A stretch of 64,000 nucleotides of DNA, taken from contig PRDH01000035.1 of assembly GCA_003345545.1 (NCBI GenBank), positions 1 to 64,000 on the forward strand, in the 5' to 3' direction. Below, in pieces: positions 16,597 through 55,198 of the stretch (within the stretch, counting starts at the first letter, position 1; each line of letters begins with the position of its first letter). A program made the position numbers and the translations under genes. This stretch comes from Candidatus Thorarchaeota archaeon (GTDB lineage Archaea; Asgardarchaeota; Thorarchaeia; Thorarchaeales; Thorarchaeaceae). Below the pieces are notes generated by a model that was not told the DNA's origin, did no database searches, and saw only the letters and a program-made list of their open reading frames with translations.

Positions 16597-17517
16597 CTAA
16601 TCGGATGTTTCGCTCTCAGCAATCCTCTTTCTGAGGTAATGTTCACAAAGCCAAGGGAATTTCGACTCTGAGAGTCTCACGAGGGGTGTGGCTGTCTTGA
16701 TGAACTGATGCTTCTTCATGCTCCTCAGGATTTGTTCGATGTCTCTTAAATCATCGACAACGAATTCCACAAAGACTTCTGGAGATGTCGCGACAAAATA
16801 GGTGTCCCAGTACTCTCTAGGAAACGATTCTCTGAGCCATTTCGCTAGTTTATCGGCTGTTGTGGCTCTCTCATCATAGATCGTTCTCATGAAAAATTGA
16901 ATGCAGCCGCCCGCGACAAGATTCCACCGCGCAGCAGTCCATATGCAATCAGTCTCTGAGAAACGATCCAGAATTCTCTTGACACGTCGGGCAGTGAGTC
17001 CTGTCTTCTCTGAAATCTCTCTAATTGGCATCCGAGCATCATCGACTAGAACTTTGAGCACTCTGAGGTCCGCCTTCTTTAGCTCAGCCTTTCCCCCTCT
17101 CCGGTACAGAATCGGGTAAATCTCAAGACGGATTACTTCCTTGTTGCTCCGAATGAAGGATCCTATCTGATTAAGTCCTTCAGACTTGATGTACTGAGCA
17201 GCGAGATGATACACACCACCCTCTGTGCATGCGATCAGTCCCACAAAAATAGTCATTGGACTCTGACCAAGTTTCGTGATGAATTCCTCGGGGTCCTCTG
17301 TTCCATCAGTGTACACGAGCGCAAACATGATGTCAGCGTCAATCATCTCTGCGCTCAGGCTGACCATGAATCTATCAATAATACCGGCCTCCATCATCTT
17401 GAGAATTCTGCCTCGGATACCGTTTGCAGTGAGTCCGAACTTCCTTGCGAGCGCTTGGTATGAAATCCTGCAGTTCTCATGAAGCTCCCATATGATTCCT
17501 CTGTCAATCGTGTCCAC
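16597..17517 (-). CDS. Lrp/AsnC-type transcriptional regulator with two HTH modules
   Basis: MDTIDRGIIWELHENCRISYQALA and ADLRVLKVLVDDARMPIREISEKTG. Confidence 0.88.
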   Translation of the reverse strand: MDTIDRGIIWELHENCRISYQALARKFGLTANGIRGRILKMMEAGIIDRFMVSLSAEMIDADIMFALVYTDGTEDPEEFITKLGQSPMTIFVGLIACTEGGVYHLAAQYIKSEGLNQIGSFIRSNKEVIRLEIYPILYRRGGKAELKKADLRVLKVLVDDARMPIREISEKTGLTARRVKRILDRFSETDCIWTAARWNLVAGGCIQFFMRTIYDERATTADKLAKWLRESFPREYWDTYFVATSPEVFVEFVVDDLRDIEQILRSMKKHQFIKTATPLVRLSESKFPWLCEHYLRKRIAESETSD

Positions 17518-17884: not shown

Positions 17885-19870
17885 ATGAGCGAGTTCAAAC
17901 TGGTTGCCCCTTTCAAGCCAACAGGCGACCAACCACAGGCAATTGCCAAGCTAGTGGAGGGTCTCGAGAGTGGACTTGAACATCAGACGCTTCTGGGAGT
18001 CACAGGTTCAGGCAAGACGTTCACCATGGCCAATGTCATAGAGGCTGTGCAGAAGCCCACTCTGGTCATCTCTCACAATAAAACTCTGGCAGCACAGCTC
18101 GCTTCTGAATACAAGCAGTTCTTTCCATCGAATGCAGTGGAGTACTTCGTCAGCTACTATGATTACTACCAGCCTGAGGCGTATGTTCCCTCAAAGGACA
18201 TGTACATCGAGAAAGAGACCGACATCAATGAAGAGATCGAACGACTCCGCCACTCAACGACTCACTCACTCCGTTCTCGAAAGGATGTCGTTGTGGTAGC
18301 ATCAGTGTCCTGCATCTATGGTGTGGGGGACCCCAGCGAGTACGATTACTTCAGGATGTACATCGAGCGCGGAAAGAAGGTCGACAGGAGAGAGATTCTG
18401 GAACGCCTTGTTGCCATGCAATACGAACGCAACGATATGGATGTCAAGCCGGGAGTCTTCAGGGTCAGAGGCGATGTCATCGATGTGTACCCGTCAGGGT
18501 CCGAAAATAGCATCCGGATAGAGCTTGACGGCGATGTTGTTGACAGGCTCACTCTTCTTGAACGCCTCACTGCCAGAAAGATTGGAAGTCCTGACTGGTT
18601 TGAACTCTACCCCGCCCGTCATCATATCGCACGATATGAGAAAGTTGTTGAGGTCCTCGATGAGATCGAGCAGGAGATGGAAGAGCGCGTTGAGTGGTTC
18701 AAGAAAGAGGGCAAATTAGTCGAGGCGGACCGCCTGAAGCGCAGAACCCTGTTCGATCTTGAGATGCTGAGAGAGACTGGCATGTGTCAGGGGATTGAGA
18801 ACTACTCACGATTCATTGATGGCCGTGCAAAGGGTGTGAAACCCTATACCCTGCTGGATTACTTCCCTGATGACTTCCTGATGATTCTTGATGAGAGTCA
18901 TATGACCATCCCCCAGTTACATGGGATGTACAATGGCGACCTTGCTCGGAAGCAGAACCTTGTTGATTATGGTTTCAGGTTGCCTTCCGCGATTGACAAC
19001 AGACCCCTGAAGTTCCACGAGTTTGAGAAGTACATGAGGCGCGTCATCTACACAACCGCGACACCTGGCCCGTTTGAAAAGAAGGTGAGTCAGCAGATAG
19101 TTGAGCAGCTGGTTCGACCAACCGGGCTCCTAGACCCTGAGGTCATCGTCAAGCCTGTAGTAGGTCAGGTGGACCATCTCCTTGGAGAGATCAAGAGGAC
19201 AGTCACTCTGGGTGACCGAATCCTAGTCACGACACTCACAAAGAAGACTGCTGAGATGCTGAGTGAGTATCTCGTAGACGCCGGTGTCAAGGCGCGATAT
19301 CTCCACTCCGATATAGGGACCGTCGAGCGAATTGAGATTGTTCGCGAACTTCGTCAGGGAAAGTTTGACGTCTTGGTCGGAATCAACCTCCTTCGAGAGG
19401 GACTTGACCTCCCAGAGGTCTCTTTGGTGGCAATTTTGGATGCTGATAAGGAAGGTTTCCTACGAACGGACTGGGCACTCATTCAGACGATGGGCCGAGC
19501 AGCAAGAAACGCTAATGGTCGTGTGGTTCTCTTTGGTGACCATGTTTCAGACGCGATGCAGAGTGCCATCGATGAAACCAACCGAAGACGTCGCTATCAG
19601 ACGAAATACAACGAGGAACATGGCATTCGACCGACGTCAATTGTGAAGGGCATTCAGGACATTGCACAGGGTATTGTCAAGCCTGAGAAAGAAGCTCAGA
19701 CAAAGCTAGAGGACTTTGACCCATTTGAGGTGGATGAACTTGCTGACTACATTATCGACTTGGAAGAACAAATGAAGGAGGCTGCCCGGAACCTTGAGTT
19801 CGAGAAGGCGGCGAAGCTCCGAGATCAGATTGCAGGATTACGGAAGAGGATAGAAGGAGTTCAAGAGTGA
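17885..19870 (+). CDS. uvrB: Excinuclease ABC subunit B
   Basis: GDQPQAI, GVTGSGKT, YYDYYQPEAY, DESH, GINLLREGLD, QTMGRAARN and a C-terminal UVR domain. Confidence 0.98.
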   Translation: MSEFKLVAPFKPTGDQPQAIAKLVEGLESGLEHQTLLGVTGSGKTFTMANVIEAVQKPTLVISHNKTLAAQLASEYKQFFPSNAVEYFVSYYDYYQPEAYVPSKDMYIEKETDINEEIERLRHSTTHSLRSRKDVVVVASVSCIYGVGDPSEYDYFRMYIERGKKVDRREILERLVAMQYERNDMDVKPGVFRVRGDVIDVYPSGSENSIRIELDGDVVDRLTLLERLTARKIGSPDWFELYPARHHIARYEKVVEVLDEIEQEMEERVEWFKKEGKLVEADRLKRRTLFDLEMLRETGMCQGIENYSRFIDGRAKGVKPYTLLDYFPDDFLMILDESHMTIPQLHGMYNGDLARKQNLVDYGFRLPSAIDNRPLKFHEFEKYMRRVIYTTATPGPFEKKVSQQIVEQLVRPTGLLDPEVIVKPVVGQVDHLLGEIKRTVTLGDRILVTTLTKKTAEMLSEYLVDAGVKARYLHSDIGTVERIEIVRELRQGKFDVLVGINLLREGLDLPEVSLVAILDADKEGFLRTDWALIQTMGRAARNANGRVVLFGDHVSDAMQSAIDETNRRRRYQTKYNEEHGIRPTSIVKGIQDIAQGIVKPEKEAQTKLEDFDPFEVDELADYIIDLEEQMKEAARNLEFEKAAKLRDQIAGLRKRIEGVQE

Positions 19871-22815
19871 CCACGGCGGACAAGAGGAAGAGCACTGGTG
19901 ACCTAGAGTCTGAGGAAGATATTCCTAGGTCAATCGTGGTCATAGGCGCCGCTGAGCACAATCTGAAACACATCGATGTCACTATTCCAAAGAATACTCT
20001 TACAGTGGTGACAGGTCTCTCGGGGTCAGGGAAGAGCTCCTTGGTCTTTGATACTATCTACAGCGAAGGCCAGAGGCGATTCATAGAGTCACTCTCACCG
20101 TATGCTCGGCAGTTTCTGGGAATGCTTGAGAAACCAAAGGTCGACCTAATGACAGGTCTCTCGCCATCAATATCAATCGACCAGAAGAGTGTCAGCCGAA
20201 ATCCAAGGTCGACGGTCGGGACCATTACAGAGATTTATGATTATCTGCGCCTTCTGTACGCTAGGGTTGGAGAGCCCCACTGCCCGAAATGCGGAAAGAA
20301 GGTCGAACCCCAGACATCTCAGCAGATTGTTGACCGCATCATGGATTTCAAAGAGGGCTCCCGAGTCATGATTCTGGCTCCTATTGTCCGGGGACGCAAG
20401 GGGGAGTATCGGAAGGAGTTCAAGGACCTGATGAAGAAGGGGTACGTGCGGGCGCGCGTTGACGGGAAACTCCTTGAGCTTGAGGAAAGTATGTCGCTTG
20501 ATAGGTACTTTGGGCACACGATAGAAGTGGTCATCGACCGTCTCACTGTGAAGGCGTCAGAGCGAGGGCGAATCTCAGAGGCTGTGGAAACCGCACTAAA
20601 GATGGCTGAGAGAGTGGTCACTATCATTGGTCCTGATGGAGACCTGACCTTGTCAGAGCAGTTCGCCTGTGTTGACTGTGGTATCAGTCTTCCAGAAATG
20701 GAACCACGTATCTTCAGTTGGAACACACCTCAAGGGGCATGTCCTCGCTGCACAGGCATCGGTGTCATCAGGCAGTTCGATCCTGATATGTTCATCACAG
20801 ATCCAAGCCGCTCTCTGAATGATGGCCTGTTCTCGACAGACGAGTGGAAAGTCAAACGTGACTTCACCAAGAAGATTATTGAGCACTACGGCTTTACCAT
20901 GGACACGCCATGGAAGGACATGACGGAGAAGCAGCGAAACCTACTTCTCTATGGTTCAGGTGACGAGAAGTTCGAGGCCACATGGGAAGCCGATAATCCA
21001 GAGTACGAGGTCCAATTCAAGGGGACATTCCAGAGGCCCTTTGAGGGCTGGGTAGAACGGGCGAAGAGGCTCTACAAGACTACAACATCTGAGTATGGTC
21101 TGAGTATTCTCGAGAAGCTCATGTCATCTCAGACGTGCCCCCTCTGCAACGGCAGGAGGCTGAGACCCGAGTCTCTGGCCGTGACATTCAACGGCAAGTC
21201 AGTCACCGACCTGAACAACATGTCAATCAAGGCTCTGAGGGAGTTCTTCGAGAAGGCAGAAGTTGTGCCTAGACTTCGACCGGTCTCAGACCCAATTATC
21301 CGTGAGATAATGGGGCGTATCGGGTTCCTTGAGGATGTAGGACTAGACTATCTCACTCTCGATAGGTCCGCTCCGAGTCTTGCGGGAGGCGAGGCTCAGA
21401 GAATTCGCCTTGCAAGCCAGATTGGCTCAAATCTTGTTGGTGTGACATACGTGTGTGATGAGCCCAGTATCGGGCTTCACAGTCGAGACAACGACAGGCT
21501 CCTGAAGTCACTCACTCATCTGCGAGACCTGGGCAACAATGTTCTCGTTGTCGAACATGATGAGGAGACCATTCGGAGAGCTGACTACATCGTCGACCTC
21601 GGCCCCGGAGCTGGTACCGAAGGCGGAGAAGTCGTCGTAGCCGGTACTCTCGATGATGTTCTCAAATGTGATAAGTCCATCACTGGCAAGTTCCTTCGGG
21701 GCGAGGACAGTATACCTGTTCCGAAGCGTAGAAGACACCCAAACGGTCGGTTCCTCGAAATGAGGGGTTGCCGACATAACAATCTGAAGAATCTGAATCT
21801 CCGGATTCCCCTTGGTCTGTTCATCGCAGTCACCGGAGTCTCAGGATCTGGCAAATCCTCTCTGATTGTGGAGACTCTCCAACGAGAACTTGCACGAAGG
21901 TTCCACAATGCAGAGGCGAAACCAGGCAAGTTTGATGAGATACTCGGTGTGGAGCAGCTTGACAAGGTAATAGTCATTGACCAGGGTCCCATAGGGAGAA
22001 CACCTAGGTCGAATCCTGCGACATACGTAGGTCTCTGGTCACCCTTGAGAGACCTCTTCTCAAGTCTTCCCGAGTCCCAGATAAGAGGATACAAACCCGG
22101 GCGTTTCAGCTTCAATGTCATGAGTGGCCGATGCGGGACCTGTAAGGGTGCTGGCGTTGAGATCATCGAAATGCAATTCCTTCCTCCAGTACAGGTTACC
22201 TGTAGTGAATGCAAGGGGCGGCGGTATAATAGAGAGACCCTACAGGTGCGGTTCAAGGGCAAGAACATCGCGGACATCTTGGACATGCGTATCGATGAGG
22301 CTGTCAAATTCCTCGAGGGCATTCCCACTGTCCACCGACGGCTTGAGACCCTCTGCGAAGTCGGTATGGGTTATGTGAAACTCGGGCAGCCTGCGACCAC
22401 GCTCTCGGGAGGTGAAGCGCAACGTATTAAGCTGAGCAAGTACCTCTCACGCCCTGCCACTGGGCAGACGCTGATATTGTTAGACGAGCCAACGACTGGG
22501 TTGCACTTTGCCGACATCAAGAAACTACTCGAAGTTCTCCATCGTCTTGTCGACTTGGGAAACACAGTTCTCGTGATTGAGCATCAGTTGGACGTAGCCA
22601 AGACCGCTGACTGGGTGATTGACCTCGGTCCTGAGGGCGGAGACGAGGGCGGCTATCTGATTGCAGAGGGAACTCCTGAAGATGTAGCTGCATGTGAGAG
22701 TTCGTTCACCGGCCACTACCTTCGCGGGCTACTGAAACCGATGAAGCAAGGGCGAGCAGTCCCTCTGAGGCAGTCAGTGCCCAAGAGGACACTGAAGCGG
22801 AGGTCAGCAAAGTGA
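19867..22815 (+). CDS. uvrA: Excinuclease ABC subunit A, paralog 1
   Basis: Two ABC NBDs (GLSGSGKS and GVSGSGKS; LAGGE and LSGGE), Zn modules, a UvrB-binding domain and PIGRTPRSNPATY. Confidence 0.97.
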   Translation: MTTADKRKSTGDLESEEDIPRSIVVIGAAEHNLKHIDVTIPKNTLTVVTGLSGSGKSSLVFDTIYSEGQRRFIESLSPYARQFLGMLEKPKVDLMTGLSPSISIDQKSVSRNPRSTVGTITEIYDYLRLLYARVGEPHCPKCGKKVEPQTSQQIVDRIMDFKEGSRVMILAPIVRGRKGEYRKEFKDLMKKGYVRARVDGKLLELEESMSLDRYFGHTIEVVIDRLTVKASERGRISEAVETALKMAERVVTIIGPDGDLTLSEQFACVDCGISLPEMEPRIFSWNTPQGACPRCTGIGVIRQFDPDMFITDPSRSLNDGLFSTDEWKVKRDFTKKIIEHYGFTMDTPWKDMTEKQRNLLLYGSGDEKFEATWEADNPEYEVQFKGTFQRPFEGWVERAKRLYKTTTSEYGLSILEKLMSSQTCPLCNGRRLRPESLAVTFNGKSVTDLNNMSIKALREFFEKAEVVPRLRPVSDPIIREIMGRIGFLEDVGLDYLTLDRSAPSLAGGEAQRIRLASQIGSNLVGVTYVCDEPSIGLHSRDNDRLLKSLTHLRDLGNNVLVVEHDEETIRRADYIVDLGPGAGTEGGEVVVAGTLDDVLKCDKSITGKFLRGEDSIPVPKRRRHPNGRFLEMRGCRHNNLKNLNLRIPLGLFIAVTGVSGSGKSSLIVETLQRELARRFHNAEAKPGKFDEILGVEQLDKVIVIDQGPIGRTPRSNPATYVGLWSPLRDLFSSLPESQIRGYKPGRFSFNVMSGRCGTCKGAGVEIIEMQFLPPVQVTCSECKGRRYNRETLQVRFKGKNIADILDMRIDEAVKFLEGIPTVHRRLETLCEVGMGYVKLGQPATTLSGGEAQRIKLSKYLSRPATGQTLILLDEPTTGLHFADIKKLLEVLHRLVDLGNTVLVIEHQLDVAKTADWVIDLGPEGGDEGGYLIAEGTPEDVAACESSFTGHYLRGLLKPMKQGRAVPLRQSVPKRTLKRRSAK

Positions 22816-25646
22816 CGGGCTACATCAAGGTACGCAAGGCTGAGGAACACAACCTCAAGTCAATTGATGTAGACATCCCCCGAGACAGTCTTGTTGTGGT
22901 CACGGGGCCAAGTGGTTCAGGCAAGTCAACCCTCGTACTTGACACGATCTTCGCGGAAGGCCAGAGGCGTTATGTGGAGAGCCTTAGCTCTTACGCTCGA
23001 AGATTTCTCGGAAGGCTCGATAGGCCGAAGGTCGAGAAGATTACGGGACTCCCACCTGCTATCTCCATTGAGCAGAAGGGTCGCACAAAGAATCCGCGAT
23101 CGACAGTTTCTACGAGTACAGAGATTCATGACTACCTCCGACTACTCTATGCAAATGTCGGAGTCGCTCACTGTGTTAAATGCGGTCTTCCCATGGAGCA
23201 ATTGACTGCTGAGTCAGCTGCACGACTACTTCTCGACGAGAACGGCGGACAGAGAATTCACGTCCTTGCCCCCATTGTCCGCGGCGAGACCGGAAAGCAT
23301 CAGGATGCTCTTGATGGACTCCACAAGAATGGATTCGCTCGTGTCCGTGTGGATGGAGATGTCATAGACATAGACCAAGTAGACTTGGATGCACGAAAGA
23401 AGCATGATATTGATGTTGTCGTTGACAGGCTCGAACTGAACCAGAAGCACCGTGAGCGGCTGATTGGCTCCCTGGAGACTGCTCTTGAAACTGGCGACGG
23501 TAGGGCAATCGTTTCTCGAGAAGGCGTGGAGGATCTTACCTTCGCTCAACAGCTAATGTGCCCGAAATGTGGCATTCAGTACGAGAAACTGGGTCCAAAA
23601 GCATTCTCCTTCAACAGGCCTGATGGGGCATGTCCTGTTTGCAACGGTCTTGGTGTGACAATGTCAATTGATCCTGAGCTCCTAGTGCCCGACAAGAACA
23701 TGACGGTTCATGAGATAAGTCGGCATATCAATGCAGGTGAACGAAACTGGTGGAATGACAGACTTGTCGCACTAGGCAAACTTCTCGGATTCACCTTGGA
23801 AACCCCGTTCAATGAGCTTAGCGAATCCCAGATAGAAGCCTTGGTCTGGGGTCGTCCTGAATATACTCTTCACTATACTCAGGAAGGTGAAACATCGACA
23901 TGGGAGATAACCAGAAAGTGGTATGGTCTTGTGAGATGGCTCGAACGTATCTTTGACCGAGGAAAGGCCAGCGATAAGTTGTACTACCGCTGGTGGGCTC
24001 AACGCATTGCTAACGAGTTCTCCAGGAAGACTGCCTGTGAAGCATGCAATGGCAGAAAGCTCAAGCCGGAGAGTCTGGCTGTCACTGTTGCGGGTAAGCC
24101 TATTGATGAGATCACGTCAATGACCATCGAGAAGGCGGCTGAATTCTTCAAGAACATCACGCTTACTGAACGAGAGTTCAAGATAGCACAACTGGTACTC
24201 AAGGAGATTCGAGCACGTCTTAACTTTCTGCTGGCCGTAGGACTCGAGTATCTGAGTCTTGACAGGGCGTCCATGACTCTATCAGGAGGTGAAAGCCAGA
24301 GAATCCGTCTTGCTACACAGATAGGGTCTGCCCTCACCGGAGTATTGTATTGCCTTGATGAGCCATCAATCGGGCTCCATCCTCGCGATGTGGGAAAGCT
24401 CATCGAAACATTCTATCACCTGAGATCTCTCGGGAATACTGTGGTGGTGATTGAACATGACCGCGATACCATTACAGCTGCTGATCATCTCATTGATCTT
24501 GGCCCTCTTGCCGGTGTGAACGGAGGTTATCTTGTGGCCGAGGGACCACCCTCTGAAGTTCTTGCTAATCCGAAGTCTCTCACTGCTCAATACCTAGCTG
24601 GAGTCAAGAGGATACCCATCCCCAAGGAACGACGGCGTGGTAATGGAAAGCAGATAGTCATTCATGGTGCTCGGGCTAACAACCTCAAGAAAATCGACGT
24701 TGGGTTTCCTCTTGGCACGATCATATGTGTCACTGGCGTTTCCGGGGCAGGAAAGAGTTCTCTGACCCATGAAACTCTCTACAAGGCACTAGCTCAGCGA
24801 CTCAACGGAACAAGTACTGTCCCAGGGAGCCATGACTCTATTGAGGGTGTCGAGAATATTGATAGAATGATTCTCGTTGACCAGTCTCCAATCGGTCGTA
24901 CTCCAAGAAGTAATCCTGCAACGTATACACAGACCTTCGGAGAGATTCGGGACCTCTTTGCAATGATGCCTGAGGCGAAAGCGAGAGGGTACGGACCTGG
25001 CCGTTTCAGTTTCAACACGAGAGACGGTCGGTGTGAGAAATGCAAAGGCAGTGGCGTCATTCAGGTCGAGATGCACTTCATGTCGGATGTCTTCATGACA
25101 TGCGATGTCTGCAAGGGCAACCGATTCGACAGAGAGACCTTGGAGGTCACTTACAAAGGAAAGAACATCACGCAAGTTCTCACATTGACCATAGAGGAGG
25201 CGCTGCAGCTGTTCGCCGACATACCGAAGATTGCAGAGAGATTGGGAACCCTGGTCGATGTTGGACTTGGCTATCTTCAGCTAGGCCAGCCCGCCACGAC
25301 ATTGAGCGGCGGTGAGGCTCAGCGTATGAAGCTGGCCGCTGAGCTATCCCGGAAGTCTACAGGGAACACACTCTACCTGATGGACGAACCCACGACTGGC
25401 CTCTCAGCCTCAGATGTGCACGTGCTTCTTGGAGTAGTGAACCGTCTCGTCGACGCAGGTAACACCGTGGTCATCGTTGAGCACAATCTCGAAGTTATAA
25501 AGACCGCAGATTGGGTGATAGATCTCGGCCCTGATGGCGGTGATGGTGGGGGGGAAGTCATCGCAGTCGGGACACCAGAAGATGTGATTAGAGTGAAGAA
25601 ATCTTATACTGGAAAACATCTGAAACCAGTCCTCTCCGCATCCTGA
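22812..25646 (+). CDS. uvrA: Excinuclease ABC subunit A, paralog 2
   Basis: Two ABC NBDs (GPSGSGKS and GVSGAGKS; LSGGE twice), Zn modules, a UvrB-binding domain and PIGRTPRSNPATY. Confidence 0.97.
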   Translation: MTGYIKVRKAEEHNLKSIDVDIPRDSLVVVTGPSGSGKSTLVLDTIFAEGQRRYVESLSSYARRFLGRLDRPKVEKITGLPPAISIEQKGRTKNPRSTVSTSTEIHDYLRLLYANVGVAHCVKCGLPMEQLTAESAARLLLDENGGQRIHVLAPIVRGETGKHQDALDGLHKNGFARVRVDGDVIDIDQVDLDARKKHDIDVVVDRLELNQKHRERLIGSLETALETGDGRAIVSREGVEDLTFAQQLMCPKCGIQYEKLGPKAFSFNRPDGACPVCNGLGVTMSIDPELLVPDKNMTVHEISRHINAGERNWWNDRLVALGKLLGFTLETPFNELSESQIEALVWGRPEYTLHYTQEGETSTWEITRKWYGLVRWLERIFDRGKASDKLYYRWWAQRIANEFSRKTACEACNGRKLKPESLAVTVAGKPIDEITSMTIEKAAEFFKNITLTEREFKIAQLVLKEIRARLNFLLAVGLEYLSLDRASMTLSGGESQRIRLATQIGSALTGVLYCLDEPSIGLHPRDVGKLIETFYHLRSLGNTVVVIEHDRDTITAADHLIDLGPLAGVNGGYLVAEGPPSEVLANPKSLTAQYLAGVKRIPIPKERRRGNGKQIVIHGARANNLKKIDVGFPLGTIICVTGVSGAGKSSLTHETLYKALAQRLNGTSTVPGSHDSIEGVENIDRMILVDQSPIGRTPRSNPATYTQTFGEIRDLFAMMPEAKARGYGPGRFSFNTRDGRCEKCKGSGVIQVEMHFMSDVFMTCDVCKGNRFDRETLEVTYKGKNITQVLTLTIEEALQLFADIPKIAERLGTLVDVGLGYLQLGQPATTLSGGEAQRMKLAAELSRKSTGNTLYLMDEPTTGLSASDVHVLLGVVNRLVDAGNTVVIVEHNLEVIKTADWVIDLGPDGGDGGGEVIAVGTPEDVIRVKKSYTGKHLKPVLSAS

Positions 25647-26091
25647 AGCTCTTCTAGAGTGATGCATCGCATCTGTTTCGAGTTTCCCATCGGATTCGAT
25701 TCACATAGGTCTCTTACATATAGTTCCAGCAAAGTGGGTCTACTGGTTGTCTAACATGAAGAAGCATTTGAGGTTGAAAAACGAAGAAGAAACAGAAGGG
25801 CGCCCTATGCTTTCGATTTGTCGTCTGGCTTTGCACATTATTCTCACGTGGAAGGACGTGAAGTCGTGCTATGATGTCTATAATACAAGATTGAAGCGAT
25901 TAGGACTCATTTTATGAATATTCTGGCAATCATAATATTGAATGGGTATCAAAAAGGACTCATAACCATTATAAGACCTGTCGGGTGGTAATACCTCACA
26001 CGTACACGTACCCTATATTAGCACTCCATGAGTATTCATTCCTGTTTGCATCGACAGAATCCTCATGATTCGTCCGCCGGGAGGACAACGC

Positions 26092-26607
26092 ATGACACAG
26101 CGAGAGGATGCCTCGAAGACTATACAATCGATTTCCAGCGACAGGCCTTCCACTGTGATAGAATCTGACCTCAGGATGCGGCTCAGGACATTTCCTCGGG
26201 ACGCACAGACCTGGTATGCTCTGGGTTCCTATCTCCATTCCTTCGGAAGACTTGATGAGGCAGAGGAGGCACTGCGGAAGGCCATCTCCCTAAACCCTGG
26301 TCCAGCACATTTTCTGGAAGAGCTAGCACGGATTCTCATGGATCTCGGGCGACTTGATGAGGCCTATCAGCTGTATGATAAGAGAGCCCCCTCCTCAATT
26401 GACGCCCTCAGAGGTGAGATTGACGTACTTCGTAGGATGGAGGCTGCTGCGGACGAAAACGCCGTTGCCATCTCCCCCTGCATAGATTGCTCTGACTATA
26501 CATATTACGGGTGTTCTAAAGATGGTGCCTGCGACTCCATTAATCGTTGGCGCACGAGAGTCAGACAGGTCGCCACTCAGAGAAGCCCTGATGGACACTC
26601 CAAGTAG
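26092..26607 (+). CDS. TPR protein with a C-terminal Cys4 motif (CX2CX7CX5C)
   Basis: SD ggagga before the ATG; WYALGSYLHSFGRLDEAEEALRKAISLNP; PCIDCSDYTYYGCSKDGAC. Confidence 0.78.
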   Translation: MTQREDASKTIQSISSDRPSTVIESDLRMRLRTFPRDAQTWYALGSYLHSFGRLDEAEEALRKAISLNPGPAHFLEELARILMDLGRLDEAYQLYDKRAPSSIDALRGEIDVLRRMEAAADENAVAISPCIDCSDYTYYGCSKDGACDSINRWRTRVRQVATQRSPDGHSK

Positions 26608-26684
26608 CTCGCTTGTACCCACCGAATCACTGATTTGGCACGGAGTTCAAAAGTGATTGGACTCACATTAAAGGATGATACGGA

Positions 26685-28496
26685 ATGTCAAATCTTTCAG
26701 CCTTAGTCAGTGACTTGCCTGACCAGCCAGGAGTCTACATCTGGAAGAATGACAAGGGCGACATTCTGTACATTGGCAAGGCAAAGATGCTGAAGCGTCG
26801 CGTCGGATCGTATATGCGAAAGACAGGTCTCTACCGCAGGACATGGGAGATGATGCAGGAGGCAGTTGACCTGGAAACCATCATCACGAATACAGAGCGG
26901 GAGGCACTGATTCTGGAGCAGACTCTCATCAAGAAGCACCAACCTCGGTATAACATAGCTCTAAAGGATGATCGGCGGCACGCGTGGGTGCGCGTGAACA
27001 AGAATGACCCTATTCCCACCTTTGAGGTCACTAGAGATGCTCAGAAGGATGGTGCGACCTATTTTGGTCCCTATGGAAGTACAAAGCGCTTGGATCGTTT
27101 TTTGGACACCATACGGAAGATTATCCCTGTTGCCACATGCAAGGAACCATGGAAAGTCAAGCGTGCCTGCATGGACTATCATCTTGAGCGATGCACGGCT
27201 CCCTGTGAGAAACACATCTCGAAGGAAGAGTACATGTCACTTGTTGAGCAGATGTGCATGTATCTCGATGGCAGGTCAGAGGAGCTGACCGAATCTATCG
27301 AAGAGCAGATGTTGAAGGCATCAAGGGAGATGAGATTTGAAGCTGCAGCTGAACTGCGTGATCGGCTCTCCGATATTGAGATCATCATGAGCCGACAGAA
27401 AGTCGTCGAGTTCGATGGTATCAATCGGGACATTCTCGGCATCTCGCGTACTGAGCAGGCTGCCCTCATTGAGATGCTAATCATTCGGAACGGGCGACTG
27501 ATTGGCCAGGACAACTTCTATTTTGAAATTGACCTAGAAGTAAAGGACTCAGATATACTCACTGCATATATCGAGCAGTTCTATTTTGGACTTCCAAGAC
27601 TGCCGAACGAGATAGTCTTGCCCTGTAAGATCCCCGATATGCAACAGCTCAGTGAGTGGCTTAGCGAAAGCAACGGACATGAGGTCAAAGTCACTGAGGC
27701 TCTTGATGCAAAAAGCCGGGAGCTCGTTGAGATGGCCAACAAGAATGCCCACCGTGCACTCAGAAAGATGCTCATACTTGGTTCCAGTGAAGATGAGATA
27801 GTGCATGACGGCGTCAAGGAGCTCAAAGAGGCTCTTGGACTCAGTCAGGCACCAATGCATATCGAAGGCTTTGACATTGCTAACATACAGGGCACGGATC
27901 CCACAGGCTCATGTGTTGTATTTCAGAATGGTGAACCAGACAACAAAATGTACCGTATGTTCCGAGTTCGGACCAAGGACACTCCTGACGACTACGCTAT
28001 GATGCGGGAAGTTGTCTTCAGGCGCTACACTGGCGTTCTCGAACGTGGTCATACCCTTCCTGACCTTATTCTGATTGATGGTGGGAAGGGGCAGCTGAAG
28101 GTAGCGCTTGATGCACTCAAGGAACTTGGGCTTGAGTACTTGCAGGTAGCTGCTGTCGCCAAGACGGAAGAGCGTATCTTCACTAGAGGCAATCTTGAGG
28201 GTGTCGTACTTGATTATGGTTCTGAAGGTCTGCACCTCATTCAGAATATCCGTGATGAAGCGCATCGATTCGCGCAGCGATATCATCACAAACTCCGCGA
28301 GAAACGCTTTACCGGCTCCATACTTGAGGAAGCCCCTGGAATTGGACCGAAGCGACGCAAGGCGCTCATTGATGCATTTGGAAGCTATGACGGTGTGAGG
28401 AAGGCAGCTGCTGATGAGCTAGCCAAAGTGGAAGGCATGTCTCAGTCTTCAGCTAAAGCACTATACGCATGGCTCCACACGGAAGAACAAGACTAG
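26685..28496 (+). CDS. uvrC: Excinuclease ABC subunit C
   Basis: GIY-YIG (PGVY..YIGKAK), Cys cluster, UVR, RNase H-like (EGFDIA, DDYAMM, IDGGKGQL, RDEAHRFA) and HhH. Confidence 0.98.
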   Translation: MSNLSALVSDLPDQPGVYIWKNDKGDILYIGKAKMLKRRVGSYMRKTGLYRRTWEMMQEAVDLETIITNTEREALILEQTLIKKHQPRYNIALKDDRRHAWVRVNKNDPIPTFEVTRDAQKDGATYFGPYGSTKRLDRFLDTIRKIIPVATCKEPWKVKRACMDYHLERCTAPCEKHISKEEYMSLVEQMCMYLDGRSEELTESIEEQMLKASREMRFEAAAELRDRLSDIEIIMSRQKVVEFDGINRDILGISRTEQAALIEMLIIRNGRLIGQDNFYFEIDLEVKDSDILTAYIEQFYFGLPRLPNEIVLPCKIPDMQQLSEWLSESNGHEVKVTEALDAKSRELVEMANKNAHRALRKMLILGSSEDEIVHDGVKELKEALGLSQAPMHIEGFDIANIQGTDPTGSCVVFQNGEPDNKMYRMFRVRTKDTPDDYAMMREVVFRRYTGVLERGHTLPDLILIDGGKGQLKVALDALKELGLEYLQVAAVAKTEERIFTRGNLEGVVLDYGSEGLHLIQNIRDEAHRFAQRYHHKLREKRFTGSILEEAPGIGPKRRKALIDAFGSYDGVRKAAADELAKVEGMSQSSAKALYAWLHTEEQD

Positions 28497-28935: not shown

Positions 28936-29214
28936 CTAGTAGTCCATTCGGCGAGACTGTTTCACCAGGTACGGAACTCCGAGAACTGAATCAAAGAACT
29001 CTCTCAGCGAGTCATCGATGAGAATAACCCGAACATGCGCCATTTCATCGCTATTTGGATCGAAAGTACCTATGACTTTCTCAATCTGTGACTCATCTTC
29101 TAGCATCAGAATCGTACTTGCTTCGTCGATTTCCTCATGCATCGTAAACTTATCTCGTATCTGCTCCATGCAGCTCCTGTATTCACCAGGTCTGACTCTG
29201 TAGAATAGCTTCAT
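28936..29214 (-). CDS. Hypothetical protein
   Basis: 92-aa ORF with gaggt upstream of the ATG. Confidence 0.6.
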   Translation of the reverse strand: MKLFYRVRPGEYRSCMEQIRDKFTMHEEIDEASTILMLEDESQIEKVIGTFDPNSDEMAHVRVILIDDSLREFFDSVLGVPYLVKQSRRMDY

Positions 29215-29313
29215 CGTCTGTGACCTCGTTTTTGTCTTTCTCATAGACATGCAGGAAGGTATAAGTGATTTAGTCCTTCCACTCACAGCCACTGCATATC
29301 GGGAGTATTTGAC

Positions 29314-30951
29314 ATGACTAGTTACCGCCACAAGATGATAAGTGTTCTTCTGCTTTCATTAATGATCTCAGGTTTCATTCCTCTTGTTCTTTCTCCCATG
29401 GTTTCACTTGAAAGCTCTGAAAGAATCTATGCACCCTCGGCCTTCACGTGGCAGACCTTTAACAAGAACATGAATGTGACGACATTCGTATCACCTGATG
29501 GAAGTCGTAATGGTCTCTGGCATTTTCTCAATTCAGCTAAGGAGAGTATCTATGTTGAGATCTTTGGGATAAACAACCCCTACCTACTTGATCTCATTCA
29601 CGATCTTCACGCTACAAAACCTTCCCTTGAGATGAAGTTCCTAATAGGATGGAACAGCTTAGGCTACTATAGTCCCAATGATTATGTCGCCAATGATCTG
29701 ACAAATCTTGGCATTCCTGTGAAGTGGACCAGTGATACAGAATTCACCTATGCCCACCAGAAGTTCGTCATAATCGATAATATGACGACGATTGTGCATT
29801 CTGGTAATTGGGCAAAGACGAGTTTTCCCGAGGACGGCAAGATAGCTAACAGGGAGTGGAGTATTGCGATGACTGATACGGAGGTCACACAATACTATCG
29901 AAATGTCTTCGACTACGACTGGAGTAACGGTATCGACTATAATCCAGTTGCTCATGGAACCGGCACTCCACTTTCATATACTGAAACCGGTAGTAGCTAT
30001 CCTCGACCTTTTGCGACTCCCGGAACATTCAGTGGTGCGATGAAGGTCACACCAATCTTCAGTCCGGATACAAGCCTCCAGGGGATTCTCTATTGCATAA
30101 ACGCAGCTCAGGCGACGCTTGACATTCAAATTCCATATATCACAAACTTTGATGCTGGTAATGCAGTGACTCAAATCCTTAATGCAATCATCGCAGCGAA
30201 GAACCGTGGCGTGACAGTCCGGGTGATCACTGAGGAAGACTACGATTTCCTTGAGGTTGCTGCGCTCCTGCAGGGTCATAATATACCGGTAGTCTGGCAA
30301 GATGCAACTTGGTTCAGTACTGATCACAATAAGGGCATCATTGTTGATGGTCGAATAGTTCTCGTAAGCAGTATCAACTATAGCGATGGAAGTATTTCGG
30401 AGAACCGAGAGTCTGGAGTCATTATCGAGAACACACAGGTAGCACAGTGGTATCTAGATGTGTACGATTTTGACTGGGGAATTGGTGATTGCGATGTAAT
30501 GGATGAGGTCAATCTCTATTGGGATCCCAATATACCGACAAGCTCTTCACCAATCAGTGTTACAGTGTATGCTCACATGCTGAACGAAACACCTGTTGAC
30601 TCAGTTAGACTAGGTGTGCGGATTGGAACAGGCAGCTGGTCAAACTACACTATCACGAACAATATCTTCGAGTCAGCAGAAGGCGATTTAGAGAACTACT
30701 ACCATGTCATCCCTGCTCAGGCTGATGGCACAGACATCACTGTACAGGCAACTGTGGTAGCTGATGGAACATCGTATGTCGGCGAAGAGATGGTGATTCC
30801 AGTGCGGAACTCGATTGGGTCCATCACTACAACAACAACTACTCCGGACTCCTTGACCCAGCTGATAATTGAGCTCTCTCCCTACATAGCTCTAGCCATC
30901 ATTACGGGTATTGTCGCTCTCTGCGCAAAGAGCAGCAAGAAGAATCCGTAG
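29314..30951 (+). CDS. Secreted, C-terminally anchored phospholipase D-family protein
   Basis: Two HKD motifs (HQKFVIID...SGN and HNKGIIVD...SSIN), signal peptide, Thr linker and C-terminal TM. Confidence 0.9.
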   Translation: MTSYRHKMISVLLLSLMISGFIPLVLSPMVSLESSERIYAPSAFTWQTFNKNMNVTTFVSPDGSRNGLWHFLNSAKESIYVEIFGINNPYLLDLIHDLHATKPSLEMKFLIGWNSLGYYSPNDYVANDLTNLGIPVKWTSDTEFTYAHQKFVIIDNMTTIVHSGNWAKTSFPEDGKIANREWSIAMTDTEVTQYYRNVFDYDWSNGIDYNPVAHGTGTPLSYTETGSSYPRPFATPGTFSGAMKVTPIFSPDTSLQGILYCINAAQATLDIQIPYITNFDAGNAVTQILNAIIAAKNRGVTVRVITEEDYDFLEVAALLQGHNIPVVWQDATWFSTDHNKGIIVDGRIVLVSSINYSDGSISENRESGVIIENTQVAQWYLDVYDFDWGIGDCDVMDEVNLYWDPNIPTSSSPISVTVYAHMLNETPVDSVRLGVRIGTGSWSNYTITNNIFESAEGDLENYYHVIPAQADGTDITVQATVVADGTSYVGEEMVIPVRNSIGSITTTTTTPDSLTQLIIELSPYIALAIITGIVALCAKSSKKNP

Positions 30952-52561: not shown

Positions 52562-55198
52562 TTGGAAGTAGCTGATGCTGACGTTCAAAAACGGCTCTTG
52601 AAACCCTATGTGCTTGTCTTTAGGGCCGCTAAGCAAGACATGGCGACCAGAGTCGATGTGTTCTCGGATGAGCTAAGGGACCGTCAGCGTTCAGTATTAG
52701 GTGGCATGATAGAATTCGGATACCGAGCTTCCGAGATGCTGGAGGTTAATCGATTCTGGTTTATCAAATACAACAAACCTCTCTACTATCAACCCAAAGA
52801 AGCCAATGAGATTCTGAGAAAGGCAAAGAGTATAATCATTCCAAAGGAGCTGACACCTGGATTCCTTGGAGACCTGAAGACTTTTCTTGAGCGGATTGGC
52901 GCATCGAATGCGAGAGTCGTTCCAACCTGCCAACATTGCCTGCGCGATGACAAGCTCACAATTCTGACTAGAAGAAATGTTGTGAAGCTGACTGCAGAAC
53001 AGGTGACCTGTTTGTCGTGCGCTCAAGCTGATCTCAAGACTGAGTTGAAGACTCTTGGCATCAATATGTCTCGGGCAATGATGAATCAGTTGGAACGGCA
53101 AGTATCACGCGTAAAATCCATTCCTCGTCTTCTAGAGATGCTGACACCTGGATTCGATCCAACCGCAGAACCTGACCTCACACTCATTGACACAGTCGTT
53201 GCTCAGGATGTAGGCACAAAGAAAGACATCGAGGAACTCCCAATCCCGGACGAATTCAAGAAGGTACTCAGAGAAGCTGGATTGGAAGTACTTCTACCCA
53301 TTCAGCGGAAGACTGTTGACTCAGGTCTCTTGAAAAACGCCTCACTCCTGATCGTGTCCTCCACGTCATCGGGAAAGACCCTCTTGGGTGAACTTGCAGG
53401 AATTCCCAAGGCCATGCAGGGCAAGAGGATGGTGTACATGTCGCCCCTTGTTGCATTGACAAACGAGAAGTATGAGCTATTCAGAAAGAGATATCGTACG
53501 CTTGGCCTGCGCACAGGTATCAAAGTTGGTATGTCACGTCTTGATGTGGGAAACGAGGGGAAACCAATTGTCGATACTGACATCAGCAAGGCCGATATCA
53601 TCTGTGCTACATATGAAGCATTGGACTTGCTCTTTCGTTCTGGAAGTACGAGCGATCTTGGTAACGTGGGCACCGTAATCATTGATGAGATTCAGAACCT
53701 TGCAGATCCTGAGCGGGGCCCTGAACTCGATGGCCTTCTCACGCGGATGCGCTTGCACTACCCTAGGGCACAATACATCGCGCTCTCAGCTACAGTCGGC
53801 TCACCAGCAGCATTGGCAAAGGAACTTGGCTTCAAGCTTGTTAACTTTGAAGGACGCCCAGTTCCTTTGGAGAAGCATCTTATCTTCGCGAGAAGTGATG
53901 AAGACAAGTGGTCTATCATCCGTCGTCTTGTCAGCCATGAGTTCAAACACACAAGTACATTCGGAAACAAGGGACAGTCCATTATATTCACATACTCGCG
54001 ACGGCGTGCTCAGAATCTGAATGATTGGCTCCGTGAACAACACGTATCGTCTACTGTCTATCACGGAGGACTTCCATACAACCAGAGGAGAGGAATCGAA
54101 AGAGCATATGACAGACAGAAGTTCGCATGTGTTGTTACAACAGCGGCTCTGGGAGCTGGCGTGGACCTACCTGCATCTCTGGTGATCTTTGAAACCCTCG
54201 CAATGGGCGCGGATTGGCTGTCAAATGCCGAATTTGAACAGATGTTGGGTCGTGCCGGCCGTCTCGGCAAACATGACCGCGGCAAGGTATATGTTATAGT
54301 TCAGCCTGAGCGGAAATATCATAGTGGACAAGATGGCACCGAGGATGAAGTAGCGGTGCGTCTACTCAATGGAATAATCGAGGACGTTGAGCCATTTGCT
54401 GATAAGGAAGCGAGTGCCGAACAGATTCTAGCGACCATATGCTCTACCGGTCTGGTGGACTTGAAGTCAATTGCACGAGCGTACAAGAGCATGCTTTCGA
54501 TGTCCGTGCCTCCATCTGACGCTCTGAAGCATCTAGTCAAGACCCACATGATTCGAGTGAAGGAAGGAGGCGCATATCCGACAGAGCTTGGTCGTGCAAC
54601 TTCACTCTCCTTCTTGACCCCAAGCATGGGTCTGGAGGTCACGAAACTCACGGCCTCGTATGATGTCTTAGATATCGCGTTGATGCTCGAACCGTTTGAG
54701 AACATTTACCTGAGTAACAAACTGCAGGAAGAGATTAACTCCGCCTTCAGGACACACATGCCCACTCGACTGTTCTCAGGTGTATTTGGAGAGATAAGCA
54801 GTCTGACCAAACCGGGCAGCGGAGCAGGAAGACTGCCTCAGTGGGTCTTTGAGGTCTTCAGCAAATGGACCATTGCATTCTTCAATTGTGGCTGTCGCGA
54901 TTTTCCGGAGTGTGACCACGGGAAGGTAAAATTGGGACGCTGGCTAGTTGAGAGGAGACATGAGGGCTACAATCCATCCGGACTGGCTGACAGACTTGAA
55001 AGGGAATTTGAACTATGGGCATACCCCGGTGATCTTTTTTCCTGGCTTGACTCGCTTATTCATAGTCTGAAGGCAGTACAGCGGATTGCTGACGTCGCTG
55101 GCAAGACCGATCTCAGTGAGGAGATTGATAGCCAGATTGCGAGAATCGAACGACCTCTAGAGCATCAAGAGGTCGAGCAGAAGACAACTACGACGTAA
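52562..55198 (+). CDS. Archaeal Ski2-like DEAD/DEAH helicase (ASH-Ski2/DUF5814 type)
   Basis: N-terminal CQHC..CLSC, STSSGKT, DEIQ, LSAT, QMLGRAGR and C-terminal FFNCGCRDFPECDH..YPGD. Confidence 0.88.
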   Translation: MEVADADVQKRLLKPYVLVFRAAKQDMATRVDVFSDELRDRQRSVLGGMIEFGYRASEMLEVNRFWFIKYNKPLYYQPKEANEILRKAKSIIIPKELTPGFLGDLKTFLERIGASNARVVPTCQHCLRDDKLTILTRRNVVKLTAEQVTCLSCAQADLKTELKTLGINMSRAMMNQLERQVSRVKSIPRLLEMLTPGFDPTAEPDLTLIDTVVAQDVGTKKDIEELPIPDEFKKVLREAGLEVLLPIQRKTVDSGLLKNASLLIVSSTSSGKTLLGELAGIPKAMQGKRMVYMSPLVALTNEKYELFRKRYRTLGLRTGIKVGMSRLDVGNEGKPIVDTDISKADIICATYEALDLLFRSGSTSDLGNVGTVIIDEIQNLADPERGPELDGLLTRMRLHYPRAQYIALSATVGSPAALAKELGFKLVNFEGRPVPLEKHLIFARSDEDKWSIIRRLVSHEFKHTSTFGNKGQSIIFTYSRRRAQNLNDWLREQHVSSTVYHGGLPYNQRRGIERAYDRQKFACVVTTAALGAGVDLPASLVIFETLAMGADWLSNAEFEQMLGRAGRLGKHDRGKVYVIVQPERKYHSGQDGTEDEVAVRLLNGIIEDVEPFADKEASAEQILATICSTGLVDLKSIARAYKSMLSMSVPPSDALKHLVKTHMIRVKEGGAYPTELGRATSLSFLTPSMGLEVTKLTASYDVLDIALMLEPFENIYLSNKLQEEINSAFRTHMPTRLFSGVFGEISSLTKPGSGAGRLPQWVFEVFSKWTIAFFNCGCRDFPECDHGKVKLGRWLVERRHEGYNPSGLADRLEREFELWAYPGDLFSWLDSLIHSLKAVQRIADVAGKTDLSEEIDSQIARIERPLEHQEVEQKTTTT

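Follow-up and report, generated by a model that had tools for sequence, protein, structure and literature searches.

Organization of the uvr Locus

The stretch of DNA analyzed here (the window) comprises 64,000 nucleotides, positions 1 to 64,000 of contig PRDH01000035.1 in the Candidatus Thorarchaeota archaeon assembly GCA_003345545.1. It contains a nucleotide excision repair (NER) locus in which uvrB is followed by two full-length uvrA genes, uvrA-1 and uvrA-2 (products A-1 and A-2), and further downstream by uvrC. The four genes, and the junctions that join the first three, lie at the following window positions; junctions were read from the map of open reading frames (ORFs).

17885–19870, + strand: uvrB, 661 aa; TIGR00631 1003 bits (cut-off 750), NF003673 1013 bits; Pfam UvrB_inter, UvrB and UVR domains
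19867–19870, + strand: GTGA overlap (4 bp), uvrB stop with uvrA-1 start
19867–22815, + strand: uvrA-1, the more canonical paralog (alpha unit), 982 aa, GTG start; NF001503 1373.5 bits
22812–22815, + strand: GTGA overlap (4 bp), uvrA-1 stop with uvrA-2 start
22812–25646, + strand: uvrA-2, the diverged but intact paralog (beta unit), 944 aa, GTG start; NF001503 1325.7 bits
26685–28496, + strand: uvrC, 603 aa; TIGR00194 546.8 bits (cut-off 285); GIY-YIG, UvrC RNase H and HhH domains

An initial annotation, made from the DNA sequence, had placed two full-length UvrA paralogs of 982 and 944 aa behind uvrB; the ORFs are exactly as claimed, and both GTGA overlaps were confirmed. The two uvrA genes are separate ORFs in different frames, with the TGA stop contained in the GTGA overlap. 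Together with a small ORF for a tetratricopeptide repeat (TPR)/Cys protein between uvrA-2 and uvrC, described below, all the genes share the + strand. The UvrABC set is complete at the locus, with UvrB, UvrC and both UvrAs each above their family cut-offs. Searches of the genome (2.69 Mb in 82 contigs, 93% complete) identified A-1 and A-2 as its only UvrAs and returned a single uvrB and a single uvrC.

Both Paralogs Are Full-Length Class I UvrA Proteins

A-1 and A-2 both pass the cut-off of the UvrA equivalog NF001503 (1147) and that of TIGR00630 (729.8), where they score 1307.8 and 1268.1 bits, respectively. They align end to end with 49% identity. Each carries all eight ATPase motifs (Walker A, Walker B, signature and H-loop, two copies apiece; LAGGE is the first signature in A-1), and six CxxC pairs, representing three zinc modules, occupy equivalent positions in the two proteins. 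The UvrB-binding domain (PF17760, Pfam UvrA_inter) scores 129 bits in A-1 and 102 bits in A-2, and the insertion domain (PF17755, Pfam UvrA_DNA-bind) 70 and 53 bits. This motif and Pfam evidence bears out the view, put forward in the initial annotation, that both paralogs keep the nucleotide-binding domains, the zinc modules and the UvrB-binding domain. Residues R216 and E222 of E. coli UvrA contact UvrB and were mutated experimentally to disrupt the UvrB surface (PMC3025350). Both are retained in 15/15 A-2 sequences and, counting one D for E, in 15/15 A-1 sequences.

A-1 is 53–58% identical to UvrAs from Bacillota, Armatimonadota and Chloroflexota, which is higher than its identity to A-2. 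Among PDB entries, Clostridium thermocellum UvrA (Ct-UvrA) matches best, with a full-length alignment of 1198 bits. At least 116 orthologs of A-2 are present in public data, with identities of 67–100%; orthologs in the 67–90% range bear the source name Candidatus Thorarchaeota archaeon. Both paralogs are intact, full-length class I UvrA proteins.

The Pair Is Conserved across Thorarchaeia

TIGR00630 was searched against 87 genomes of the class Thorarchaeia. UvrA matches were found in 75 genomes, covering all 17 genera. In 53/87 genomes, and again in 17/17 genera, two full-length UvrAs were direct neighbors on a single contig and kept the same order; the remainder were fragmentary. On no sufficiently long contig among the 87 genomes did one copy occur without the other. 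The order uvrB, A-1 type, A-2 type was found in all 14 further genera sampled and in the sister family, and uvrC came next in 12 of the 14. The identity of 49% and the recurrence of the adjacent pair across the class uphold the earlier claim that the paralogs are strongly diverged and are neither a recent duplication nor an assembly artifact. Contigs from four wetland DNA runs bridged both junctions only in a run that is possibly the source sample, and so they lend no independent support.

The junctions were compared at 15 loci, one per genus. The 4-bp overlap between the A-1 and A-2 genes is present at 11 of these loci, and the spacing of −4 between uvrB and uvrA-1 seen here recurs in 7 of the 14 loci from other genera. 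Where uvrC belongs to the locus in other genera, it starts 29–95 bp behind uvrA-2 in nine of 12; the gaps in the other three are 331, 716 and 1003 bp.

In trees of 117 and 73 rows, the A-1 sequences and the A-2 sequences each form a clade with 100% support. Because each clade contains every sampled genus, the split between A-1 and A-2 predates the sampled Thorarchaeia. The stem branch of A-2 is the longer one (0.39–0.48, versus 0.15–0.22 for A-1). Mean identity within the clades is 74% for A-1 and 71% for A-2, and these similar values indicate similar purifying selection on both copies. The synteny and phylogeny that the initial annotation had proposed to examine thus yielded two stable, co-occurring clades across 17/17 genera, and neither absence of the pair from relatives nor decay of one copy was seen.

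One relative (G063; 416-kb contig, region C4:341500-352000) has frameshifts in uvrB and uvrA-2. Since uvrB is hit as well, the probable cause is indel errors in the assembly, not decay.

The class also has two other kinds of UvrA-related frames, both of which this genome lacks. One is a third full-length type, encoded away from the operon in many Thorarchaeia and Heimdall genomes (G018:C54 (L037), G004:C45 (L068), G058 (L069, L070) and G049 (L071); Heimdall L063–L065). It is 42–45% identical to A-1 and A-2, forms its own clade with 100% support and has an altered DNA wedge (Q65 to T/S, F66 to R/M in the Ct-UvrA numbering used below). Frames of ∼1630–1650 aa with two UvrA units, both lacking the N-terminal 250–400 residues, were found in several Thorarchaeia and Heimdall genomes (e.g., G004:C6:43446-47522 and G013:C5:58940-63016) and resemble fused class II-like doubles.

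Sites at Which A-1 and A-2 Differ

Positions conserved in at least 90% of 32 single-copy UvrAs served as the comparison set for A-1 and A-2 from 15 genera. Residues were mapped onto Ct-UvrA and onto the contacts listed in a 2025 cryo-EM study of that protein, in which Y62, Q65 and F66 form a DNA wedge at the dimer center and the hairpin tips at F755 stack across the dimer (PMC12796330). The segments concerned are listed below.

20068–20184, + strand: uvrA-1 dimer-interface/wedge segment, aa 68–106, GQRRF..YARQF..GLSPSISIDQ, equivalent to Ct-UvrA residues 51–89
22959–23075, + strand: uvrA-2 dimer-interface/wedge segment, aa 50–88, with Q65R and S82P (Ct-UvrA numbering)
23280–23306, + strand: uvrA-2 UvrB-binding-domain patch, RGETGKHQD versus canonical RGRKGEY(K/R)K
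25068–25091, + strand: uvrA-2 zinc-finger β-hairpin tip, EMHFMSDV versus canonical MHFLPDV

Fixed changes at conserved positions are few in either paralog and mostly conservative. In the A-2 wedge, Q65, invariant in 32/32 single-copy proteins, is replaced by R65 in 111/111 orthologs. S82, in the dimer interface of ATP-binding domain I, is likewise invariant in 32/32 single-copy UvrAs and is P82 in 113/113 A-2 orthologs; this position is also variable in fused double UvrAs. At the hairpin tip beside F755, L756M and P757S/T are each found in 15/15 genera, and the motif HFM(S/T)D in 114/116 orthologs. The changes in A-1 are Y55F, A84S, F269W and D758P, of which F55 and S84 are fixed in 15/15 genera. 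Both F269 and L756 are invariant in the 32 single-copy UvrAs.

The UvrB-binding domain of A-2 also carries changes (E. coli numbering). K159, invariant in the 32 single-copy proteins and in A-1, is gone from A-2 in 15/15 genera; R158 is E in 15/15 A-2 sequences and in 4/4 C-terminal halves of fused UvrAs from Heimdall family f5; and the acidic residue at 219 is G (D219G). Domain by domain, A-1 and A-2 are least alike in the insertion domain, at 24% identity, followed by the UvrB-binding domain at 37%.

Relationship to Fused Double-Length UvrAs

When A-1 was compared with 1.8 billion representative proteins, the top matches were more than 100 clusters of double-length UvrAs (1700–2340 aa), each with two full or nearly full UvrA units and with named sources that include Chloroflexota and Heimdallarchaeota. 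Among seven Heimdall families sampled, f5 and f19 have single frames of 1917–1975 aa with two UvrA units, and the other five have single UvrAs. In Planctomycetes, two uvrA genes joined by fusion have been described and the protein detected (PMC8567305). The UvrA–UvrA′ pair in an Asgard archaeon, as first annotated, is real; paired or fused UvrAs are not unique to this organism. Fused doubles in Heimdall and in bacteria show one molecule working with two diverged UvrA units (PMC8567305). This layout is established, if barely studied, and the version in Thorarchaeia is, at least functionally, the same layout without the fusion. The family model for fused UvrA, NF001885 (PRK00635; 1809 positions), has a cut-off of 3054, well above the 677 and 676 bits scored by A-1 and A-2.

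Reduced trees were calculated from the 73-row set under LG+G4 and LG+C20 (PMSF). They group A-1 with the fused N-terminal halves (SH-aLRT 95–97) and A-2 with the fused C-terminal halves (93–95), and place all doubles in one clade (90–91). Orthology with the fused halves has no more than moderate support, and common descent of the Thorarchaeia pair and the fused doubles is plausible. The C-terminal tail of A-1 was considered as a remnant of a fusion linker, and this was rejected; the tails are short, variable and unlike the Heimdall linkers.

Four fused doubles (P0142, P0143, P0148 and P0149) have halves whose placement shifts with data set and model. They fall into alpha-like and beta-like clades under LG+G4 with 73 rows and are sisters in the 117-row and LG+C20 trees, which hints at independent fusions or a rearranged order of units. 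In the fused UvrA of Heimdall family f5 (L053, L056 and L057), the N-terminal half lacks R216 (S) and E222 (T/D/S) and the C-terminal half keeps both; only one unit may bind UvrB in these proteins, unlike in the Thorarchaeia pair.

A Candidate A-1/A-2 Heterodimer and Its Alternatives

In the M. tuberculosis UvrA2 homodimer, damage brings about a "division of labour" between one insertion domain engaged in recognition (recognition-ID) and one in support (support-ID). It is to the protomer with the support-ID that the first UvrB attaches, and the insertion and UvrB-binding domains behave asymmetrically in the UvrA2–UvrB1 complex (PMC11985968). Each UvrB contacts both UvrA protomers (PMC12796330). 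We put the probability at roughly 0.5 that A-1 and A-2 act as an asymmetric heterodimer, which would be an unfused form of the double UvrA and replace the UvrA2 homodimer. The initial annotation had suggested such a heterodimer, or two sensors of different lesion specificity, and that proposal finds partial support. This is the best-supported reading because the coupling is conserved, co-occurrence is strict, uvrB and uvrC are single, relatives carry the units fused, and the subunits differ. Since they differ in the wedge and hairpin tip as well as in the insertion and UvrB-binding domains, a heterodimer would make the asymmetry permanent.

We infer that uvrB, uvrA-1 and uvrA-2 are probably co-transcribed; the start/stop overlaps would couple translation so as to yield similar amounts of A-1 and A-2. 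A scan for promoters and terminators, with bacterial models that are ill-suited to archaea, gave fewer matches than shuffled sequence. The predicted heterodimer would scan DNA and probe it with an asymmetric central wedge, to which A-1 contributes Q65 and A-2 contributes R65. It would load the single UvrB through two non-equivalent sites, one formed by the UvrB-binding domain from A-1 with signature II of A-2 and the other by the reverse combination, before UvrC incises. Such a complex would hard-wire the division of labor between recognition-ID and support-ID that the homodimer acquires only on a lesion.

A more specific version can be proposed tentatively, in which the heterodimer of UvrA-alpha and UvrA-beta is obligate and belongs to an old double-UvrA lineage that was repeatedly fused and split and exchanged between bacteria and Asgard archaea. 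The beta unit, with its R65 wedge, altered hairpin tip and altered UvrB-binding and insertion domains, and the near-canonical alpha unit would then permanently hold the recognition and support roles, which the protomers of a homodimer take up only transiently on a lesion.

Several results weigh against the heterodimer or its link to the fused proteins. Every feature needed by a self-sufficient homodimeric UvrA is kept in both paralogs. The fixed changes are not significantly enriched at published dimer-center residues (3/16 versus 24/346, p 0.09). F55 in A-1 and P82 in A-2 were considered as a compensatory pair, and this was rejected as a general rule, as many fused doubles have Y55 and P82 in both halves. 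In the 117-row tree, A-1 falls next to single UvrAs from Heimdall, and in an approximately unbiased (AU) test on the 73-row subset, A-1 and A-2 as one clade were not rejected (delta lnL 2.8, p 0.47). A-2 and the fused C-terminal halves have no indels in common, and a 1-aa insertion of the C-terminal halves is missing from A-2. The "Rosetta-stone" link of A-1 and A-2 to the fused halves may reflect convergence or long-branch attraction, the latter being possible because the C-half branches are long. A search for RNA runs containing the locus listed none.

In an alternative, A-1 and A-2 would each be homodimeric, differ in their preference for lesions or DNA structures, and share one operon and the same UvrB and UvrC. 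We regard this as the strongest competitor, though less likely than the heterodimer. Neither protein is missing any part of a class I UvrA: ATPase sites, zinc modules and UvrB-binding domain, including R216 and E222, are all intact, and the residues that contact themselves across the dyad (F66, F755 and Y/F55) would allow self-pairing in either case. The changes in the wedge (Q65R), hairpin tip and insertion domain of A-2 could retune lesion probing inside a homodimer, and the AU test permits a simple lineage-specific duplication followed by subfunctionalization. However, independent sensors require neither a conserved 4-bp overlap nor class-wide adjacency in a fixed order. Known second UvrAs, those of class II, are encoded elsewhere and lack the UvrB-binding domain (PMC9328131), and related lineages fuse the two units in one chain, which forces them to act jointly.

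A mixed population seems improbable. Here, homodimers and heterodimers would exchange to give three sensor species, or A-2 would modulate A-1 in UvrB loading or turnover. The dimer interface is small and nucleotide dependent (∼900 to 500 square angstroms; PMC12796330). A-1 and A-2 share most of the residues that form it, so that no combination is obviously blocked. The loss of the invariant basic patch and of the acidic residue at position 219 from the UvrB-binding domain of A-2 would suit a modulator, whereas equal constraint on both proteins and the intact ATPase sites of A-2 argue against a purely regulatory role. Redundancy or decay of the second copy, or its recent arrival as foreign DNA, is very improbable: the G063 frameshifts in uvrA-2 (and in uvrB) could be read as decay, but the conservation data contradict it, with both clades in all genera at 100% support, full-length frames and 71–74% identity within clades, and the GC content of the locus (0.49–0.53) is near that of the rest of the window (0.44–0.50).

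Neighboring Genes

Two features separate uvrA-2 from uvrC.

25647–26064, no strand: spacer 3′ of uvrA-2, 418 bp, absent in most genera
26065–26607, + strand: TPR protein with a C-terminal CxxC..C..C tail, 180 aa; Pfam TPR families

The initial annotation had counted the TPR/Cys gene as part of the uvr locus. The gene is present here, but its homologs (47–94% identical) were confined to the position behind uvrA-2 in this genus and in a single genome from another, and the 418-bp spacer in front of it is likewise restricted to these two genera; it is a lineage-restricted insert and no class-wide part of the locus.

Upstream, the − strand encodes at 16597–17517 a protein of 306 aa that has two winged-helix domains of the AsnC/Lrp type and is divergent from uvrB across 367 bp. 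It was considered as a conserved regulator of the operon and rejected, as no such neighbor of the operon was found in other genera. Just 3′ of uvrC lie a 131-aa ORF (28936–29331, − strand) and the gene for a 545-aa protein with two PLD-like (PLDc_2) domains (29314–30951, + strand); in at least seven further genera of Thorarchaeia, the two likewise follow the operon in synteny. Farther along the window, an 878-aa DEAD/Helicase_C protein with a C-terminal DUF5814 is encoded at 52562–55198 on the + strand.

Comparison with Known UvrA Systems

The canonical references were the UvrAs of E. coli, G. stearothermophilus (2R6F/3UWX), T. maritima (3PIH), M. tuberculosis (3ZQJ) and C. thermocellum (9GXK). 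Like these class I homodimers, both Thorarchaeia paralogs have the full architecture and motifs, lie in a uvrB/uvrC context and keep R216 and E222. Unlike them, they are encoded by two diverged genes with a coupling overlap, and A-2 has the changes Q65R, S82P and L756M and has lost K159.

The similarity to the fused double UvrAs is that of two diverged full-length units, in a fixed order, serving one NER system, with R158E common to A-2 and the C-terminal halves of Heimdall f5. In the Thorarchaeia, by contrast, the units are separate polypeptides, with a stop/start overlap and a change of frame between them, and both retain the R216 and E222 that the f5 N-terminal halves have lost. Class II UvrAs (D. 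radiodurans UvrA2, 2VF7; DrrC; Ecm16, 7SH1) are comparable in being a second UvrA-family protein in one genome. They lack the first zinc module and the UvrB-binding domain, are independent of UvrB and UvrC, and are encoded elsewhere (PMC9328131). Both Thorarchaeia proteins, unlike these, have PF17760 and all CxxC pairs. Our search of the literature on tandem or heterodimeric UvrA and on UvrA class schemes returned nothing on unfused, full-length, coupled pairs or on a UvrA heterodimer; class II paralogs and fused doubles are already known.

A parallel is offered by mismatch repair, where the MutS homodimer, a symmetric ABC-type sensor that becomes asymmetric on the lesion, is replaced in eukaryotes by MSH2–MSH6, paralogs that fix the asymmetry. 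MSH2–MSH6 belongs to a different protein family from UvrA and is a proven heterodimer, the Thorarchaeia pair a candidate one.

NER normally has a double UvrA in the Thorarchaeia, one of the Asgard classes, where it is split, and in two of the seven sampled Heimdall families, where it is fused. How the symmetric UvrA2 breaks its symmetry, picks the damaged strand and hands the lesion to one UvrB is an open question (PMC11985968, PMC12796330). The main value of the Thorarchaeia pair would be as a natural two-subunit system for symmetry breaking in UvrA, with Q65R, S82P, L756M/P757S, R158E/K159x and D219G as the candidate residues of interest. Two separable subunits would let the ATPase sites, wedge, insertion domain and UvrB-binding domain of each protomer be mutated singly, something that neither a homodimer nor a fused chain readily permits.

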